A stretch of DNA of 64,000 bases from an uncultured delta proteobacterium. GTDB taxonomy: Bacteria; Desulfobacterota; Binatia; UBA9968. Shown piece by piece: positions 9,518 to 18,919 of the stretch (its first letter is position 1; every line of letters begins with the position of its first letter). The position numbers were made by a program, and so were the translations under genes. The stretch covers positions 35,358 to 99,357 of the forward strand of contig CAVWLW010000006.1 in NCBI GenBank assembly GCA_963755715.1, read 5' to 3'. The notes below the pieces were generated by a model. That model saw only the letters and a program-made list of their open reading frames with translations, did no database searches and was not told where the DNA came from.

Positions 9518-11989
9518 TTAGAGCTCGCGATGCCGACCGATTTCGATCTCGTCGTTTACCGCTAATCGATCGAGAACTTCCGCCAAGGTTTCATACTTGG
9601 CCGGCTTGGTGAGATGGGCGTCAAAGCCGGCTTCCTTGGTGCGCTGACGATCCAACTGATGGCCCCAACCGGAAAGCGCGATCAAAAAAATCCGCTTCCC
9701 CCAGGGTTGTTCGCGGATTAGACGCGCGACGTCGTAGCCGTTGAGTTTCGGCATCGCAAGGTCAAGTACTGCCACGTCCGGTTGAAATTCAGCGGCGGCT
9801 TCGACGGCTTCGATGCCGTTTTGCGCGATCTGTACTTCGTTGCCGTCTTGTCGCAACAGCCGCGCGAGGATCTCAGCCGATTGGGGAAAATCATCGGCAA
9901 CGAGGATGCGGCGGCGGGGCCGGCTCACCGCGCCGTTGCCATGAGCCGGTTCGTAACGATCGGCAATCGAGTGTTCAGGAAGCGCGCGCAAATGGACGAT
10001 GAATTCGCTGCCGCGATTGACGCCGTCGCTGCGCACTTCGACATGGCCGTCGTGCATTTCGACCAATCGATGAACCAGCGTGAGACCGAGACCAAGCCCG
10101 CCTTCGGCGCGCGTGAACGAGCGGTCGACTTGATAAAACAATTCAAACAAATGGGGCAAATTTTCAGCGGCAACTCCAATGCCTGTGTCTTTAACGCGGA
10201 CGACGACCGTATCGCCCGCCTGTTCGACGTTTAACCAGATGTGTCCGTTGTTGGGCGTGTACTTCGCGGCGTTGTTCAATAAGTTCATGAAGACCTGGGT
10301 GAGCCTGACGCGGTCAGCTTCCACGTAGATGGACTGCTGCGACATCGCGATCGCAAGCTCGTGTTGCCGCTGGTCGATCAGCGGGCGGCTCGATTCCACC
10401 GCCGCCCGGATTACGTCACCCAGGTTCACCGGCTCTTTTTGCAAAATGAGCTTGTCGCGCGTAATTCGGCTCACGTCGAATAGATCATCCGTCAACCGGG
10501 TAAGATAATTGACTTGTCTCTCGATGATGTCCTGTCCCCAGTGCGGATCGGGTTCGGGTGAGCCCGGGGTATTTTGTAGCGTGCTGACATTACGGATCAG
10601 CGACAACGGATTGCGCAGCTCGTGGGCCAAGGTTGCCAGGAACTCGTCTTTGCGCCGATCGGCGTCGCGCAGCGCGGCATCGCTCTCGCGTAGCGTCATA
10701 TCCAGGCGCAATTTTTCGACGGCCAGCCACGTGCGTTCAGCGACGATATTGGCCAGGGTAATTTCTCGTTCGCTCCATTCGTGCGCCTCGCTGGTGGCGA
10801 CGACCAGTGCCGAAACCAGGCTGCCATCGCGCAGCAGCGGGCTTAAAACCAGGCTGCGGGCCCCGTGTTTTTGGTAGGCTTTGCTGTCTTGCGCCGTGCG
10901 CTCGTCGCTGTGGATATCGGCAATCGCGATGATCTGACCTGAGCTGGCCGCCGCCTCGATAACGCCTGAGCTGAACGCGGTCAGCGGGTAAGAGCCGACT
11001 AACGACGGCACATGAGGATGGTAGTCGCGCTGGACGGTAAGCTGGTCACGGTCCGTATCGATCTCCACAAAACCACACCGGCTCGCTTTCAAGTGTTCGC
11101 CGAGGGAAACGGCGACCGCCCACAACAATTCGTCGGCGTCGGCTGCGAAGCGAATCCCTTCGCCGAGATCGAGCAAAAACAGCGTGTCCGCTTCCGCTTG
11201 CTTACGCCGCGTCACGTCTCTGACCGCGACGTTTACCCCAAGCAACTCGCCGGCGTCGTTGTGCACCGGGTAATAACTGCACAGCCAGTGGCTCGGTTCT
11301 TTTCGACGAATGGGATGAGTGCCTTGAACCTCTTCGTCAACGACGGGCTGACCCGTTTCAATGACGCGGCGGTAATGAGCTTCGACGGCATCGGCGAGCT
11401 CCGGCATCGCCTCGCGGACGGTTTTGCCGATGAAATAGTCGGGCGACTTTCCGCTCAATTCCGCCAGCGCGTTGTTGATCGAGACGTAACGCAGGTCGCG
11501 ATCGACAAAACACAAACCGACCGGCGCCGAGGCGTAAATCGTATTTAATTGGGCCAGCCGTTCGTTGGCCACTCGTTCATTCACGCGCATCACTTCTTGA
11601 GCGTGGCGATGGCGCAAAACCAGGATCGTTACGATCCAAATCATAGCGATCGCCAAGATGTGGTTGAAAAGGTAAACCCAATGGGGCACGCCGACTAAGA
11701 GCGACGATAAAAAATAGTCGACGATCATCAGCAGGGTGCAGGTTGCCGCCGCCCAGATTTTTTCGCGGCTATCAGGCAAGCCGATGACGAGAAGCAGGCC
11801 GGCGGCGTAGTAGACCGGCAGCGCGAGATCGTCCGGAGTCGATACATCAATCGAAAAGATGGCGAACAGCAGCAAAAGTACCAACAACCACAACAGCGAT
11901 CGGGAGGTGGCCAAAGGGGCGCGTTCCGGCTTTACCGGAGTGCCAAAATCGGTGCTTGAAAATGAGGATTCCGTAATCTCTTTTGTCAT
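9518..11989 (-). CDS. Hybrid sensor histidine kinase (TM-PAS-GAF-HisKA-HATPase-REC)
   Basis: FLATLAHELRNPL, NLLNNAAKY, DTGIG, GLGLGL, and a C-terminal receiver (VADD...LDLAMP...KP). Confidence 0.93.
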   Translation of the reverse strand: MTKEITESSFSSTDFGTPVKPERAPLATSRSLLWLLVLLLLFAIFSIDVSTPDDLALPVYYAAGLLLVIGLPDSREKIWAAATCTLLMIVDYFLSSLLVGVPHWVYLFNHILAIAMIWIVTILVLRHRHAQEVMRVNERVANERLAQLNTIYASAPVGLCFVDRDLRYVSINNALAELSGKSPDYFIGKTVREAMPELADAVEAHYRRVIETGQPVVDEEVQGTHPIRRKEPSHWLCSYYPVHNDAGELLGVNVAVRDVTRRKQAEADTLFLLDLGEGIRFAADADELLWAVAVSLGEHLKASRCGFVEIDTDRDQLTVQRDYHPHVPSLVGSYPLTAFSSGVIEAAASSGQIIAIADIHSDERTAQDSKAYQKHGARSLVLSPLLRDGSLVSALVVATSEAHEWSEREITLANIVAERTWLAVEKLRLDMTLRESDAALRDADRRKDEFLATLAHELRNPLSLIRNVSTLQNTPGSPEPDPHWGQDIIERQVNYLTRLTDDLFDVSRITRDKLILQKEPVNLGDVIRAAVESSRPLIDQRQHELAIAMSQQSIYVEADRVRLTQVFMNLLNNAAKYTPNNGHIWLNVEQAGDTVVVRVKDTGIGVAAENLPHLFELFYQVDRSFTRAEGGLGLGLTLVHRLVEMHDGHVEVRSDGVNRGSEFIVHLRALPEHSIADRYEPAHGNGAVSRPRRRILVADDFPQSAEILARLLRQDGNEVQIAQNGIEAVEAAAEFQPDVAVLDLAMPKLNGYDVARLIREQPWGKRIFLIALSGWGHQLDRQRTKEAGFDAHLTKPAKYETLAEVLDRLAVNDEIEIGRHREL

Positions 11990-12238: not shown

Positions 12239-13837
12239 ATGGCAGGCAATAGCGCGTATTACAAAGATTTTCGCGAACATTTAAATGCGCTTGAGAAGCG
12301 CGGCAAATTGGTTCGCATCAGCCGCGATATCAATAAGGACACTGAACTGATGCCGCTGGTGCGCTGGCAATTTCGCGGTTTGGACGAGCGCGAGCGCAAG
12401 GCGTTTATTTTTGAGAATGTCATCGATTCGAAAGGGCGCCGCTACAACATGCCGGTGACGGTGGGCACTTTGGCCGCGACCACAGAAATTTACGCCATCG
12501 GCTTGATGTGCGAGCCGGATCAGATCCATGAGCGCTGGACCCAAGCGCAGCTCCAGCCGATCGAACCTGTGGAAGTCGCAAGCGCGCCGGTACAGGAAGT
12601 AGTGTGGCAGGGACGGGATTTGCTGAACGGCCACGGCCTCGACATGATCCCCGTGCCGATTTCCACGCCGGGGTTCGACAACGCGCCCTATCTCACGTCC
12701 GCCAACTGGATCACCAAGGACATCGAAACCGGCATCTACAACATCGGCAACTATCGCAGCCAGATCAAAGCGCCCGATCGCGCCGGCGGTTTTTTCGTCT
12801 CCCAGCACATGGGCCAGCACTGGCGCAAATGCAAAGCCAAGGGCAAGCGGCTCGAGGCCTGCATCGCCATCGGCGTGGTGCCGAGTATCGCTTATTCGGC
12901 GACGGCAAAGATTCCCTACGACTTTGACGAATATCGTCTGGCCGGCGGTCTCGCCGGCGCGCCCATGGAGCTGGTTCAGGCGAAAACGGTTGATCTGCTC
13001 GTGCCGGCGACGGCGGAAATCATCATCGAAGGGACCATTCCCACCGACGTCATCGAACCCGAAGGGCCGTTCGGCGAATATCCCGGCTACATGGGCCACC
13101 GCTCGGTTTCGCCCTTTCTCGAAGTGAGCTGCATCACGCACCGGCGCGACGCCATTTATACGGCGCTGATGAGCCAGTTTCCGCCCAGCGAGTCGAGCAA
13201 GATCAAGCACACCGGCACGGAAAAAATTATTTACAAATTCCTGCGCCACGACAGCGGCAACGCCGCCGTGCTCGACGTCGCGCTGCACGATGAAGTGAGC
13301 GGCAGCGGGCAGGCCTACTGCGTGATAAAAATGCGCCACGGCAGCAAAGTCGACGCTTGGCGCGCGCTCAACGCTTCCGCGGGTTTCACCGGCGCCTACG
13401 GCAAGGTTTGCGTCGCGGTCGACGAAGACGTGGACATTCGCGATCCGGCGATGATCAACTGGGCGATCTGTTACAACATGAGACCCGACGAAGACGTAAT
13501 CATCGCCAAGGGCAAACCGCCGGGACTCGATCCTTCGACTTATCCGCCAGGCCGGGAAAGCGAAGACAAGCGGCCCACCTGGACCTCGTCGCTCCTGATC
13601 AACGCCGTGCGGCCGTGGCCGTACACTCCGGTATCGCTGCCGAAAAAAGAATTCATGGAGCGCTCCAGAAAAATCTGGGAGGAACTCGAGCTGCCGCCGC
13701 TGAAACCGCGCATGCCATGGTACGGCTACAGTCTCGGCGTGTGGACCGACGAAGATGAAAACGAGGCCGGCATCGCGGCCAAGAGCGACTATTTCGAAAC
13801 CGGCAAAAAGCAGACCGGACTGAGGAAGAAGACCTAG
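12239..13837 (+). CDS. UbiD family (prFMN-dependent) decarboxylase
   Basis: NIGNYR, EGPFGEYPGY, VDEDVD motifs; RBS AGGAG. Confidence 0.9.
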   Translation: MAGNSAYYKDFREHLNALEKRGKLVRISRDINKDTELMPLVRWQFRGLDERERKAFIFENVIDSKGRRYNMPVTVGTLAATTEIYAIGLMCEPDQIHERWTQAQLQPIEPVEVASAPVQEVVWQGRDLLNGHGLDMIPVPISTPGFDNAPYLTSANWITKDIETGIYNIGNYRSQIKAPDRAGGFFVSQHMGQHWRKCKAKGKRLEACIAIGVVPSIAYSATAKIPYDFDEYRLAGGLAGAPMELVQAKTVDLLVPATAEIIIEGTIPTDVIEPEGPFGEYPGYMGHRSVSPFLEVSCITHRRDAIYTALMSQFPPSESSKIKHTGTEKIIYKFLRHDSGNAAVLDVALHDEVSGSGQAYCVIKMRHGSKVDAWRALNASAGFTGAYGKVCVAVDEDVDIRDPAMINWAICYNMRPDEDVIIAKGKPPGLDPSTYPPGRESEDKRPTWTSSLLINAVRPWPYTPVSLPKKEFMERSRKIWEELELPPLKPRMPWYGYSLGVWTDEDENEAGIAAKSDYFETGKKQTGLRKKT

Positions 13838-14432: not shown

Positions 14433-15185
14433 ATGGCATTCGACCTCACCTATCTAGTCGTCGGCATCGCTCTGCTCCTCGCCGCGTTCGTCAAGGGCGT
14501 CACCGGGCTCGGGTTTCCGCTGATCGCGACGCCCACGGTCGCGCTGCTTTTGGATATCCGCACCGCGGTGACCGTATTGATCTTGCCCAACCTGTTCATG
14601 GATTCGGCGCAGGTGATCCGCGACGGTTTGCCTTACGAGATCTTCCGGCGCTTTAAAGCGTTTATCGCGCCGACCATCGTCGGCGTTTTCCTGGGAACTC
14701 TGGTGCTGGTCAAGACACCGTTGTGGATCCTCAATCTTTTTCTCGGCGTGATGGTGCTGATCTTCGTGATTTCGAACCTGCTCAAACTCGATTTCACCGT
14801 GTCGCCGCAACAGGAGAAATTTCTTTCGCCGCTATTTGGCTTTCTCAGCGGTTTTCTAAACGGCGTGACCAATGCCGCCGGGCCGGCGTTGGCGATCTAT
14901 TTTTACAGCCTCAAGTTGGAAAAGCGTGCCTTCGTGAAATCGATGGCGACGATCTTTGTCACCACTAAACTCACGCAGTTGGTGGCGATCTCGACATGGA
15001 ATTTGTTCAACTGGTATACCTTGAAACTATCCGTGCTCGTAATCTTGTTTACCCTTGTCGGTTTTTATGCCGGCATCAAAGCGCAAGACCGGATCGATCA
15101 AAAAAACTTTAATCGCGGCTTGCTGGCGCTGTTGGCTTTCGTCGGCGTGATTTTGATCATCCGTGCCGTTACGCAAGATGCCTGA
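14433..15185 (+). CDS. Sulfite exporter TauE/SafE family membrane protein
   Basis: About 8 TM helices; VKGVTGLGFP and GFLNGVTNAAGP repeats. Confidence 0.85.
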   Translation: MAFDLTYLVVGIALLLAAFVKGVTGLGFPLIATPTVALLLDIRTAVTVLILPNLFMDSAQVIRDGLPYEIFRRFKAFIAPTIVGVFLGTLVLVKTPLWILNLFLGVMVLIFVISNLLKLDFTVSPQQEKFLSPLFGFLSGFLNGVTNAAGPALAIYFYSLKLEKRAFVKSMATIFVTTKLTQLVAISTWNLFNWYTLKLSVLVILFTLVGFYAGIKAQDRIDQKNFNRGLLALLAFVGVILIIRAVTQDA

Positions 15186-15188
15186 TGA

Positions 15189-16298
15189 CTAAACGTTTGG
15201 CCAGACATTATGGGCGGTGTTTACCACTAGCTCGAGTTTTCGCCTTTGCTCATGCGGAGCAATGCGGTTGCCAATGATAGACGAAGCAAAACCGCATTGA
15301 GGACTCAGACCCAGTCGGTCTTTGGAAATATACCGACTCGCTTCGACAATTCGTCGTGACAATAATTCGTCGGCTTCGAGATCCGCTTTCTTCGTCGTCA
15401 CCAGTCCTAAGACGACGAATTTGTCATCCGGGACATCCTGCAAGGGTTCGAAGGAACCGGATCGAGCGTCGTCATACTCCAGTAGCAATCGCTGGGCATT
15501 AACGCGACGAAACAAACCGCGGCTGATCGCTTCGTAGCCACCTTTGGACAGCCACCGACTGCCCTGGTTACCACGTCAAACGTGAAACCCGAACGTAACA
15601 TCGTGAAAGCCCGTCATCACAGCATTATCCAGCTCGATACCAAAGGAAAGCCACTTGTCGAAGCTCCAGCCGAGCCCTTCGTAGAAACTGCGAGTACTGG
15701 GATCGAGTAATAAGCCGTAATGCGGGGCGTCGATCTGAATATAGGTCGCGCCGAGGCGGACAAGCTCGGTAACTTCCTCGCGCAGAATCGCGACAATGTC
15801 ATTCAGGAAATCATCGAGCGTCGGATAGGCATCTCGGGAATACTTCGGCGACCAGAAGTTCGCCCACAAGCCGGGACTCGGAAGCGTTATCTTGGGAATT
15901 CGATTCGTTTTGTTCTGCAGGTAAGAAAATTCATCCGCCGAGAGAGAACGAAGACGCTTGAGCTTCGCGATCGCGCCGAGGCGACGGGGTCGGCGTTTCT
16001 TCTGCACGCCCTGCTCGTCATACCACTCTCCCCAAAGAAAAGCGTCGAGGTCAAACTCGCCAAGCCCAGCGACCGCCGCGGTCATTTGGCTCTGAAATGA
16101 CTGGCGACGCATCTCGCCATCGGTGACGATCTCCAGACCGACGCTCTCTTGCAGCGAGACAGCTTCATCGACGGCGCCGTCTTCTATTTCTTTGAATTGT
16201 GTCGCAGTGATCGTTCCGATCGCAAGGTCTTTCTGCGCTGCGAGTAGGCTTGCCGGTCGAAGCAAGCTACCGATCACATCGGCATGAGCGGTGATCAC
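15189..16298 (-). CDS. Cobalamin-independent methionine synthase II (Meth_synt_2/MetE C-terminal) family protein, predicted selenocysteine at codon 241 (369 aa)
   Basis: ORFs 15576-16298 and 15189-15515 are in the same frame. Readthrough gives FHV-[TGA]-RGNQGSRW (family motif HxCRGN). Also present: ADVIGSLLRP, TDGEMRR, YIQIDAP, LLLEYD, LGLVTTK, LSPQCGFAS. SECIS-like hairpin follows the TGA. Confidence 0.88.
15546..15564 (-). promoter_or_regulatory. Putative bacterial SECIS element
   Basis: Begins 11 nt after the in-frame UGA (15578-15576): GGGCAGUC-GGU-GGCUGUCC, an 8-bp stem (2 G-U pairs) with a G-containing apical loop. Confidence 0.78.
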
Positions 16299-16366: not shown

Positions 16367-17089
16367 TTACAGTGCCGGCGCGTACAAGTTATCCGGCAAA
16401 CTGCGGATGTAGTCGATGGTTTCTTTGAGCGAGATCACGTCGGCGTATTTCATCGCCATGTCGAACAAGTTGATCTTGTGCGACGCTTGGCCGCGGTCGA
16501 AAACGCATTCTTCGACCACGGAAACTTTCATATTATACGAAAATGCGTCGATGACACTGGCGCGCACGCAGCCGCTGGTGGTGGTGCCGGTGACGATCAG
16601 GCTGTCGGCATGGACTTCGTTCAGCATGCTCATGAGCGGCGTGCCGAAAAAAGCGCTGGGCTTTTGTTTGTGTACGACAATATCACCCGCCTGGGGCGCG
16701 ATCTCTTGGACAATTTGATTGGCTTTCTCCCATTGCGCGGTCATGTCTTCCGTGGTTCGGTTGCTCTTGGCCGCCCAACCGCCAACCAACACCGTGCTGT
16801 TGGCGCGATTCTCCTCGGCGGTGGTATAAAACGTCGGCAAATGTTTTTTACGCGCTTCGGTGAGCAACTCGCGGATGTGATAAACCCCGTCCCATCCTTC
16901 CTCGCCGCAACTCGTGCGGAAACGTTTGACCGACTCGAGAATCGGCTCGGGCCTGTCGCCGGTAAAATTGTAATTGACATCGATGATCAGCAGCGCCGGG
17001 CGCTGACCGAAACCGGCTTTCTTGCCAAACCCTGAGAGCGCAAAGACCTCTTTATCGCGTGAAGTGAGAATATCGTCCCAGCTCGACAT
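16367..17089 (-). CDS. Isochorismatase/cysteine hydrolase family amidase (N-carbamoylsarcosine amidase/NicF-like)
   Basis: PALLIIDV, K..PSAFFGT, GTTTSGCVRAS (Asp-Lys-Cys triad). Confidence 0.9.
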   Translation of the reverse strand: MSSWDDILTSRDKEVFALSGFGKKAGFGQRPALLIIDVNYNFTGDRPEPILESVKRFRTSCGEEGWDGVYHIRELLTEARKKHLPTFYTTAEENRANSTVLVGGWAAKSNRTTEDMTAQWEKANQIVQEIAPQAGDIVVHKQKPSAFFGTPLMSMLNEVHADSLIVTGTTTSGCVRASVIDAFSYNMKVSVVEECVFDRGQASHKINLFDMAMKYADVISLKETIDYIRSLPDNLYAPAL

Positions 17090-17781: not shown

Positions 17782-18919
17782 TCAAAATCCCGCTAACTTA
17801 TAAAAGCGCGCCGGATTGGTTTCCAAAATTTTTGTTTTGGCGGCCTCGCTGATATCTTTTCTTTCGCGCAATGTCTTTTCCGCGAAACGCTCCCGGTCGC
17901 CGTGCGGCATATCGGAGCCGAACAAAATTTGTCCGTCGCCCACCAACTCGATAACTTGCGGCAAGAGTACGTCTTCGATTTCCGCGCTGAAATAAAGATT
18001 GCCCTTTTTGATGTATTCCATCGGCTCGATTTTCTGGATCGGCGCGGTGCGCGAGACGACATTGACGAGATTTTTCCCCGAGTGCTGAAAGCGGTGATGC
18101 AGTCTTTCGAGGATGAAATGCACCCATAAACAGCCGGCTTCGAGATAGACCACGCGCAGGCTCGGGAAGCGATCGAATATGCCGCCGCTCATCATCGACA
18201 CCAAACCCATGAGCACCGGCATGGAAAACGCGATGACGCCGGAAGGGTAAATGTGTGTGTACAAATTATTAATCGACGGGCAAGCCCAGCCGACGTGAAC
18301 CGCGAGGGGTAAGTCCGCTTCCGTCACCGCTTCGTAAAGCGGTAGCAGGCTCGGATCGTCGAGCAAACGATCTCCGGCGGTGCCTAAAATCATCATGCCC
18401 ACCGCGCCCAATTTCTTCGCTTCTTTCACTTGACGCACGGCCGCCGGGACGTCGATCGAGATTGACCACGCCCACCCACTTGAGCCGCTCCTGACCCGAT
18501 AGAACATCGCCGAGCCAACGATTGTAAGCGTCGCACATGGCGGTCACGTAGTCCGGATTGCAGCTCAGCGGATAGGCGAGAAAGAGCGTCGGATACAGAA
18601 CCTGGAGCCAGATGTTTTCTTCGTCCATGATCTGCAATCGCTCTTTTAGGTTCGTGAGCTCCATGCTGCCGAGAGTGTCGGGCTTGCGCTGCGCGTGGCG
18701 CACCGGTTTACCTTGATAGCTGGTCGGTGTGCCGAGATTGTTGCAGCCGCGGCCGACGCGGCGCGGGAAAAGCTGCTCGTCGATCATCCAATAGGCAAGA
18801 CCGTCTTCCGTGCCGGGGACCACTTGGGGGCGTTGTGCGCGGAAGGCAGGAGCAAAATATTGATCACTGAAGGTTATTGGATTTTCTTCGACATGACCGT
18901 CGGCATCGATAACGCGCAC
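17782..18919 (-). CDS. Amidohydrolase_2 family protein, frameshifted near 18456
   Basis: DADGH at the N-terminus (ORF 18269-18919); LEAG and GSDMPH in ORF 17782-18507. One extra C after VNLD. Confidence 0.85.

Follow-up and report, generated by a model that had tools for sequence, protein, structure and literature searches.

Predicted Selenocysteine at the Zinc Site of a Single-Domain MetE-Like Protein from Binatia

Introduction

In Escherichia coli MetE the zinc is held by H641, C643, E665 and C726 and homocysteine is bound by S433, E484 and D599, according to the available part of PMC7857596. The core methionine synthases (MesA–MesD, core-MetE) are single-domain proteins that retain both the zinc and the homocysteine site and take methyl groups from donors other than folates, and the available parts of PMC7857596 and PMC7005905 report no selenocysteine (Sec) in them. 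The gene described here encodes a protein that resembles core MetE, as characterized in those parts of the two sources, in being a single domain with both sites predicted, and it carries an in-frame UGA where a zinc-binding cysteine is expected. It lies on the minus strand of a stretch of 64,000 nucleotides, called the window below, from an uncultured delta proteobacterium of the Binatia, a soil bacterium (GenBank assembly GCA_963755715.1, contig CAVWLW010000006.1, positions 35,358 to 99,357). An earlier note, made from the DNA letters alone, had proposed that the gene encodes a selenoenzyme of the Meth_synt_2 family. The comparative evidence presented below indicates that this is very probably a genuine selenoprotein, and probably, with less assurance, one in which Sec is a ligand of the zinc.

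The Cys orthologues, of which 1YPX from Listeria and the YxjG/YxjH type of Bacillus subtilis are examples, have about 369 residues and the same fold and motifs, and the nearest metagenomic Cys forms are 63–77% identical to the window protein. They differ in having Cys at the UGA/Sec position and in DNA that lacks the extended hairpin and GGU loop found downstream of the UGA. The catalytic C-terminal domain of MetE is the same (β/α)8 barrel (TM ~0.72–0.77 to T. maritima MetE), has the same order of the H-x-C…E…C motif and conserves the Ser/Glu/Asp homocysteine-binding residues given in the available part of PMC7857596. Unlike the window protein, however, MetE has a folate-binding N-terminal domain, and in the window protein the spacing from H-x-C to Glu is 11 residues longer and Sec replaces Cys. 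The MesD structure (ACIAD3523/3RPD) shows only distant similarity to the window protein, at 25–45 bits.

Sec at the position of a metal- or metalloid-binding Cys has precedents in FdhA (Mo/W), the [NiFeSe] hydrogenases (Ni) and the Sec-type arsenite methyltransferase, and likewise in the predicted SO_0444 Cu/Zn efflux transporter and the CobW-related selenoproteins (PMC13188914, Table 1). These proteins share the standard bacterial decoding route, by SelB and a selenocysteine insertion sequence (SECIS), with the window gene, but none of them is a Meth_synt_2 protein or has a catalytic His/Cys/Glu/Cys zinc site for alkyl transfer. The same table (Appl Environ Microbiol, May 2026), which the authors describe as the most comprehensive inventory, comprises 119 prokaryotic selenoprotein families and subfamilies and has no Meth_synt_2, MetE or methionine-synthase entry, in agreement with the earlier note, which had seen here something other than a classic bacterial selenoprotein family. 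Methionine synthase, MetE and homocysteine are likewise not mentioned in the main texts of PMC13188914, PMC12013277 (deep-Sep), PMC2398784 and PMC9312934. A full-text literature search found no description of a Sec-containing MetE-like or Meth_synt_2 protein, although supplementary candidate lists (e.g., that of PMC12013277) might include it.

The Gene and Its Reading Frame

The coding sequence and its internal UGA are located as follows.

15189..16298, minus strand: MetE-like (Meth_synt_2) coding sequence, 369 residues, single-domain, with a GTG start at 16298, a TAG stop at 15191-15189 and one internal UGA
15576..15578, minus strand: UGA codon 241, the predicted Sec codon, replacing the Cys of the H-x-C zinc-ligand motif

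The frame from GTG to TAG is open except for the single TGA at 15578-15576, which stands in the context GFHV-TGA-RGNQGSRWLSKGGYE, or GFHV-U-RGNQGS at the protein level. Under translation table 11 the gene is split into an open reading frame (ORF) at 15576..16298 (240 residues) and another at 15189..15515 (108 residues, with an internal TTG start). That the two pieces share one frame and are separated by this TGA only, as the earlier note had it, was confirmed by a check of frame and translation. The read-through product has 369 residues, and every family motif that the note had named was located in it: GSLLRP at 10–15, TDGEMRR at 59–65, QIDAP at 188–192, LLEYDD at 272–277 and SPQCGF at 332–337. 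The orthologues share the N-terminus MIT.HADV.GSLLRP, which is consistent with the GTG start at 16298.

Membership in Meth_synt_2, also part of the original proposal, is borne out by the Pfam model PF01717, which matches residues 8–339 with 53.4 bits against a cut-off of 21. The nearest NCBIfam models are two short methionine-synthase models, NF005085 (PRK06520; 244.3 bits, cut-off 313) and NF004875 (PRK06233; 214.7 bits, cut-off 576), and both scores lie below the curated cut-offs. The full-length MetE model TIGR01371 gives 35.1 bits against a cut-off of 929.95, the protein having 369 residues compared with about 750 in the two-domain enzyme, and the N-terminal folate-binding domain is absent. 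In NCBIfam release 20.0 the protein matches no selenoprotein-specific model, and the release has no model for a Sec-containing MetE-like family.

Conservation of the UGA and Its Pairing with Cysteine

A survey of the order to which the genome belongs covered 123 species-level genomes, with an orthologue cut-off of E ≤ 1e-100. Of the 59 that have an orthologue, 57 carry the TGA, G009 has Cys and the remaining one offers a fragment ending short of the codon, so that the TGA is kept in 57 of the 58 genomes whose orthologue covers it. By family the counts in this survey are 55 of 89, 3 of 5 and, for a third family, 0 of 28, and the 57 TGA holders span two families and at least 22 genera. Four of them (G005, G476, G479 and G493) are unpublished genomes, without which the count is 53. 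The position of the codon was verified residue by residue in 26 sequences, and the other genomes of the order were counted by the presence of one TGA inside the match. The single two-stop case that was checked (L039, genome G015) has the terminal stop as its second stop.

The same picture emerges from narrower and wider samples. A search of 40 relatives gave orthologues of 62–97% identity with one in-frame TGA each; the TGA occupies the same codon in 15 genomes besides that of the window, in the form H-[V/I/L]-U-R-G-N-Q-G. The orthologue of G009 has TGC (Cys) there, and one other match runs off the end of its contig before reaching the codon. Scanning a single genome for each species added 12 TGA loci and a second Cys form with 62.5% identity; among 28 aligned orthologues, 26 have TGA and two have TGC at codon 241. 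In a phylum-wide sample, 2 of 401 genomes have an orthologue (E ≤ 1e-120), both with TGA.

In the database homologues the residue at this position is Cys, the expected partner of a Sec. The best 120 full-length database homologues (63–77% identity) all have it, carry the name "cobalamin-independent methionine synthase II family protein" and bear labels such as Proteobacteria, Acidiferrobacterales, Blastocatellia, Anaerolineae and Nitrospirae, mostly of other phyla. Cys is found in close homologues as well, Sec and Cys forms being up to 79% identical (the orthologue of G009), and the Cys of HxCRGN is present in eight of the eight same-genome paralogues examined. A paralogue in G007 flagged as having one TGA is not a second Sec paralogue; its TGA is the terminal stop and its motif reads HICRGN.

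On the family tree the two residues have changed places repeatedly. A metagenome scan seeded with Cys forms gave 80 loci, 59 with TGC or TGT and 21 with TGA, a share that should not be read as a frequency, since Cys was required by one of the two scan patterns; eight of the 21 TGA forms are nearer to a Cys form than to the window. In one tree 25 Sec rows form a clade, with three Cys rows nested in it, and this clade lies inside the Cys family. On another tree, of 108 rows, the Sec/Cys state needs nine changes, at least three of them forced by supported branches, which implies that Cys and Sec were exchanged more than once. TGA forms that stand among Cys forms, outside the main clade of the window, are the metagenome loci L089, L092, L093, L097, L104, L107, L110 and L132 and the genome locus L083.

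Selection and Read Evidence

The region downstream of the TGA is under purifying selection. Its median dN/dS is 0.138 (116 pairs), compared with 0.110 upstream (173 pairs), by pairwise NG86 on pairs with dS between 0.05 and 2.5; these values are rough because dS is near saturation for many pairs, yet they are far below 1, and the relaxed selection that the earlier note had named as refuting its proposal is not seen. The orthologues have no in-frame stop besides the TGA and the terminal stop. In the R-G-N-Q(-G) segment just 3' of the TGA the third codon positions vary while the residues are invariant, and no start codon is present there; variation that is synonymous only, directly after the TGA, indicates that the region is translated in frame despite lacking a start.

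Contigs from three soil DNA runs, belonging to three independent studies, span 15576-15578 with no variant listed, which supplies the read support for TGA that the note had asked to be checked; one example contig of 192 nt has 0 differences from the window. A rhizosphere metatranscriptome run contributed two contigs of 151 nt at a depth of 2, lying on 15209-15521 (3' of the TGA), too weak for a claim of expression.

The SECIS-Like Hairpin

Downstream of the UGA the message may fold into a hairpin with the following elements.

15546..15564, minus strand: SECIS-like hairpin, +15 to +33 from the U of the UGA, with an 8-bp stem (GGGCAGUC/GGCUGUCC) and an 11-nt spacer
15556-15554, minus strand: GGU loop of the hairpin, +23 to +25

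The window hairpin folds at −15.7 kcal/mol. Counted over 17 sequences, including one from the unpublished genome G005, 90.8% of cells in the stem are paired, compared with 28–76% when the partners are slid, and pair 18–30 switches from C-G to A-U and G-U at synonymous sites. The hairpin is specific to the Sec forms, as seen by comparing 39 distinct Sec forms with 51 distinct Cys forms. The four outer pairs are formed in 25/39, 39/39, 24/39 and 33/39 of the Sec forms compared with 17/51, 47/51, 8/51 and 29/51 of the Cys forms, and the mean minimum free energy is −11.3 kcal/mol for the former and −7.45 for the latter. The codon of Arg248, which makes the GGU loop when it is CGG, is CGG in 33/39 Sec forms and in only 3/51 Cys forms. 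On the tree, most Sec forms that stand amid Cys neighbours use CGG as the loop codon, and CGC is the codon in those neighbours.

An internal positive control comes from the fdhA of the same genome, where the TGA is also followed by a hairpin at +15 to +33, with the loop GGUCU. This geometry, with a stem-loop some 11 nt beyond the UGA and G/U at its apex, matches the one described for E. coli fdhF. Taken together the data point to a SECIS-like element, with modest statistical support.

Selenocysteine Machinery

The genome (7.4 Mb in 76 contigs, scored 93.6% complete) contains the genes for making and inserting Sec. The tRNA-Sec scores 76.7 bits and is confirmed by ARAGORN as tRNA-SeC with the anticodon tca; selA scores 617 bits and selB 416 bits, selD adjoins both, and all four genes are over their curated cut-offs. 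The selD gene has its own TGA, in G-U-A-A-K (locus L019, G000:C3:71086-72013). An intact fdhA, over its cut-off, carries a single TGA (the fdhA loci L165 and L166 are at G000:C1:10092-13070 and G000:C73:94983-98218). On C73 a second gene resembling fdhA lies in fragments spread over several frames, with TGAs in it. The presence of tRNA-Sec, selA, selB and selD, on which the earlier note had made its proposal depend, is thus established with one caveat, the assembly of selD in two frames, which is weighed below. Judged from its gene content, the genome is able to make selenoproteins. Across the order selA was found in 110 of the 123 genomes and in 50 of the 57 TGA holders.

Fold, Predicted Zinc Site and Substrate Residues

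By sequence the closest solved structure is 1YPX, a structural-genomics "putative B12-independent methionine synthase" from Listeria, which aligns end to end with 160 bits for the single sequence and 210 bits for the orthologue profile and places HICRGN opposite HVURGN. In the alignment with 3RPD, the MesD structure, the Cys of HICYG is opposite position 241. The AlphaFold2 model has a mean pLDDT of 81.6 and a pTM of 0.86; its low-confidence loops, 243–248 and 338–342, adjoin Sec241 and Cys335. Foldseek matches the model to 1YPX, Thermotoga maritima MetE and 3RPD as top hits and to Candida MetE (E 2e-18 to 1e-14, TM ~0.7–0.8), the E-values for 1YPX and MetE lying between 2e-18 and 1e-15; the "oxidized" T. 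maritima MetE 1XR2 is also matched. Pfam, NCBIfam, the PDB, AlphaFold2 and Foldseek agree, and on the predicted model the protein is a single-domain MetE-type (β/α)8 barrel.

The remaining predicted zinc ligands are encoded at the following positions.

15582..15584, minus strand: His239 codon, predicted zinc ligand (H of H-x-U), aligned with the H-x-C His of 1YPX and 3RPD
15477..15479, minus strand: Glu274 codon (in LLLEYDD), predicted third zinc ligand, placed by motif order only
15294..15296, minus strand: Cys335 codon (in SPQCGF), predicted fourth zinc ligand, aligned with the PDCG/TNCG Cys of Candida MetE and 3RPD

Compared with the MetE ligands, therefore, His239 and Cys335 align, position 241 has Sec for Cys and Glu274 corresponds by motif order, metal binding itself being predicted. 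Ser11, Glu62 and Asp190 align with the homocysteine-binding Ser/Glu/Asp of Candida MetE. His239, Glu62, Asp190, Glu274 and Cys335 are invariant both in the alignment of the Sec clade (A2) and in that of the Cys forms (A3), whereas Ser11 is invariant in A3 and nearly so in A2.

Proposed Mechanism

What is directly supported is the conserved UGA, the Sec/Cys pairing, the purifying selection, the Sec machinery, the Sec-form-specific hairpin and the fold. From these we infer the following course of events, from Sec incorporation through zinc binding and a Zn–Se bond to substrate, methyl donor and the benefit of Sec. The hairpin at +15 to +33, with its GGU loop 11 nt downstream of the UGA, would recruit SelB with Sec-tRNA(Sec), so that Sec would be inserted at UGA-241 without termination and the full protein of 369 residues would be made. 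The product would be a core MetE-type barrel without the folate-binding domain, belonging to the 1YPX/YxjG-like "methionine synthase II" branch. Sec241 would take the place of the H-x-C Cys, and the catalytic zinc would be held by His239, Sec241, Glu274 and Cys335. The zinc would activate homocysteine, or a similar amino-acid thiol or selenol, for methylation by a donor other than methyl-folate. A selenolate is oxidized reversibly and is a softer donor to zinc; it may boost the reactivity of the zinc-bound substrate or ease the repair of an oxidation-prone zinc site.

We hold this overall explanation, a working selenoprotein gene with Sec for Cys in a MetE-type zinc site, with good confidence. 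Its parts do not all stand equally firm: the status of genuine selenoprotein is the most secure, Sec as a ligand of the zinc is reasonably probable, and for a homocysteine-type S-methyltransferase the chances are about even.

Points Against the Proposal and Alternative Explanations

Several observations weigh against the proposal. In the assembly selD runs over two frames, the shift lying near KGGADKG, and if the shift is real, Sec synthesis would fail; an assembly indel is the more likely cause. In seven of the 57 TGA holders selA was not found, and two of these are metagenome-assembled genomes (MAGs) scored 96–100% complete. A coincidence that points the other way is seen in G009 (locus L043, the same as L076), the sole genome of the order with a Cys-form orthologue and 93% complete: selA was not found in it, which could reflect loss of the Sec trait together with a change from Sec to Cys or merely an incomplete MAG. 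Both the seven genomes and the coincidence in G009 are hints only, because MAGs are incomplete.

The hairpin is also open to objection. Alone, that of the window is unexceptional (z = −1.69, with 14 of 200 shuffles folding as well or better), and its inner four base pairs are dictated by the S-R-W-L codons and are paired in 39/39 Sec and 51/51 Cys forms. The correlation between the TGA and the CGG loop codon comes down to three phylogenetically independent pairs on supported branches (p 0.25, underpowered), so linked evolution of the two is suggestive. RNAalifold, applied to the 48 nt after the TGA, returned another, weak consensus structure (−8.0 kcal/mol) with no compensatory pairs, and an Rfam search of 15400–15700 on both strands, up to E = 10, gave no match. 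Four lines of evidence favour the hairpin at +15 to +33 over the RNAalifold structure, namely how single sequences fold, how often the positions pair, how Sec forms differ from Cys forms, and the fdhA control.

Function is affected by a third set of points. At Glu274 the HMM alignment with 3RPD is two residues out of register, so the third ligand is not securely aligned; Glu274 is the predicted one, with Asp276 or Asp277 as alternatives. No corrinoid protein or other methyl-donor partner is conserved in the neighbourhoods of the orthologues, and no substrate can be deduced from them for that reason. The genome already has a complete MetH (1684 bits), which means that the Sec protein is not the sole route to methionine; no full-length MetE was found in it. 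The zinc ligands of MetE are not known to be redox-active or nucleophilic, which would make this an unusual place for Sec.

A first alternative is that Sec is inserted but is chemically active rather than a passive ligand of zinc. Sec241 could form a zinc-releasing selenenylsulfide switch with Cys335, could serve as an alkyl acceptor or carrier, or could bind a soft metal or metalloid. Most known selenoproteins have Sec in redox-active or nucleophilic sites (PMC13188914, section 7). According to the available part of PMC4360819, the zinc-site cysteines of MetE-type proteins, YxjG included, are targets of oxidative S-thiolation, which causes methionine auxotrophy; the S-bacillithiolation of B. 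subtilis MetE at Cys730 and of YxjG are examples. The presence of the oxidized 1XR2 among the fold matches and the repeated Cys/Sec exchange on the tree point the same way. Yet His239, Glu274, Cys335 and the three substrate-binding residues stay the same across Sec and Cys forms, which argues for an ordinary zinc site and an ordinary reaction, and no thioredoxin-like or reductase partner is conserved beside the gene. We regard an active Sec as unlikely, though worth keeping in mind, and prefer Sec as a zinc ligand.

A second alternative leaves selenium out: the UGA would be passed by a near-cognate tRNA (Trp, Cys or Arg), or two polypeptides would be made, an N-terminal one of 240 residues and a separately started C-terminal piece. 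Direct evidence for selenium is lacking, which also tells against our own proposal, and the ORF at 15189..15515 does offer a TTG start downstream of the TGA. The 20 codons between TGA and TTG, however, are the most conserved part of the protein and vary only synonymously. The homologues carry Cys, which is the typical counterpart of Sec, rather than Trp or Arg; the Sec machinery and the Sec-form-specific hairpin are present; and G009, the one close relative with Cys, is also a genome in which selA was not found. This alternative is very improbable.

A pseudogene, with the TGA as a nonsense mutation in one decaying member of a large set of MetE-like paralogues, might be suspected from the at least 11 paralogues of the genome, three of them seemingly split, and from frameshifts in other genes of the assembly; but the same TGA in 57 species-level genomes and in separate metagenomic lineages, the low downstream dN/dS and the lack of any other in-frame stop in the orthologues make this scarcely credible. 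Misreading of TGC or TGT as TGA in sequencing or assembly, for which the apparent indel errors of the assembly could be cited, can be dismissed for practical purposes, since the soil contigs of three studies cover the codon with no listed variant, independent assemblies by many groups have the same TGA, and the other defects seen are indels rather than substitutions.

Gene Neighbourhood and Paralogues

The two genes that flank the Sec gene are the following.

16367-17089, minus strand: isochorismatase-family gene, 68 nt upstream on the same strand as the Sec gene, adjoining the orthologue in several loci
14433-15185, plus strand: TauE/SafE membrane protein gene, convergent with the Sec gene and separated from its 3' end by 3 nt, kept in at least 10 orthologue loci

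Genes for Amidohydro_2 proteins, NMT1/SsuA-like binding proteins and SAM-dependent methyltransferases recur near the orthologues. A gene for a hybrid PAS/GAF histidine kinase with a receiver domain (9518-11989, minus strand) and one for a UbiD-family decarboxylase (12239-13837, plus strand) are each syntenic in some relatives. The Amidohydro_2 gene of the window (17782-18919, minus strand) is present as two overlapping ORFs, with a 1-nt insertion near 18455 relative to the 97%-identical L065, which is in one frame; the split may be an assembly indel or a true frameshift. The earlier note had stated that every other broken gene of the window is broken by an indel, and this was found to be so for the one gene checked, the Amidohydro_2 gene.

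The paralogues of the genome are short MetE-like proteins with about 40% identity, and three of them are split across two frames. They are found on contigs C59 (four copies), C29, C26, C73, C34, C64, C55 and C50 (loci L025–L035). A search of the genome (G000) for MesX (PF08908) gave no match, and the control genomes were also without a match.

Significance

The enzyme family and the decoding route are both known; what is new is the predicted Sec variant, and a zinc-selenolate in a non-redox alkyltransferase would be a new type of site. We lean towards the view that here, for the first time in a natural enzyme, a selenolate binds a catalytic zinc, in a site for non-redox alkyl transfer where soil bacteria have repeatedly swapped Cys and Sec. 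With about the same leaning, we consider the family to be widespread in the Binatia order to which the genome belongs and to occur in at least one lineage besides.

Binatia MAGs have contributed short related database entries that bear the name methionine synthase, "partial", and may stop either at the UGA or where a contig ends. If the proposal is true, this selenoprotein family has been invisible to annotation because gene callers cut at the UGA, and where they do so, metabolic reconstructions of abundant soil bacteria lose the catalytic half of the protein. The finding also draws attention to a core-MetE-type family with at least 11 paralogues in one genome.

Nearly all known selenoproteins are redox enzymes, and a Zn–Se site in a methyltransferase fold, if true, adds a type of metal site to natural enzymology. 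The exchange of Cys for Sec may make an oxidation-prone zinc-thiolate site more robust or adapt it to the methylation of thiols or selenols. Sec/Cys pairs with up to 79% identity provide a natural comparison for the effect of selenium on zinc-thiolate alkyl transfer and on resistance to oxidative inactivation.

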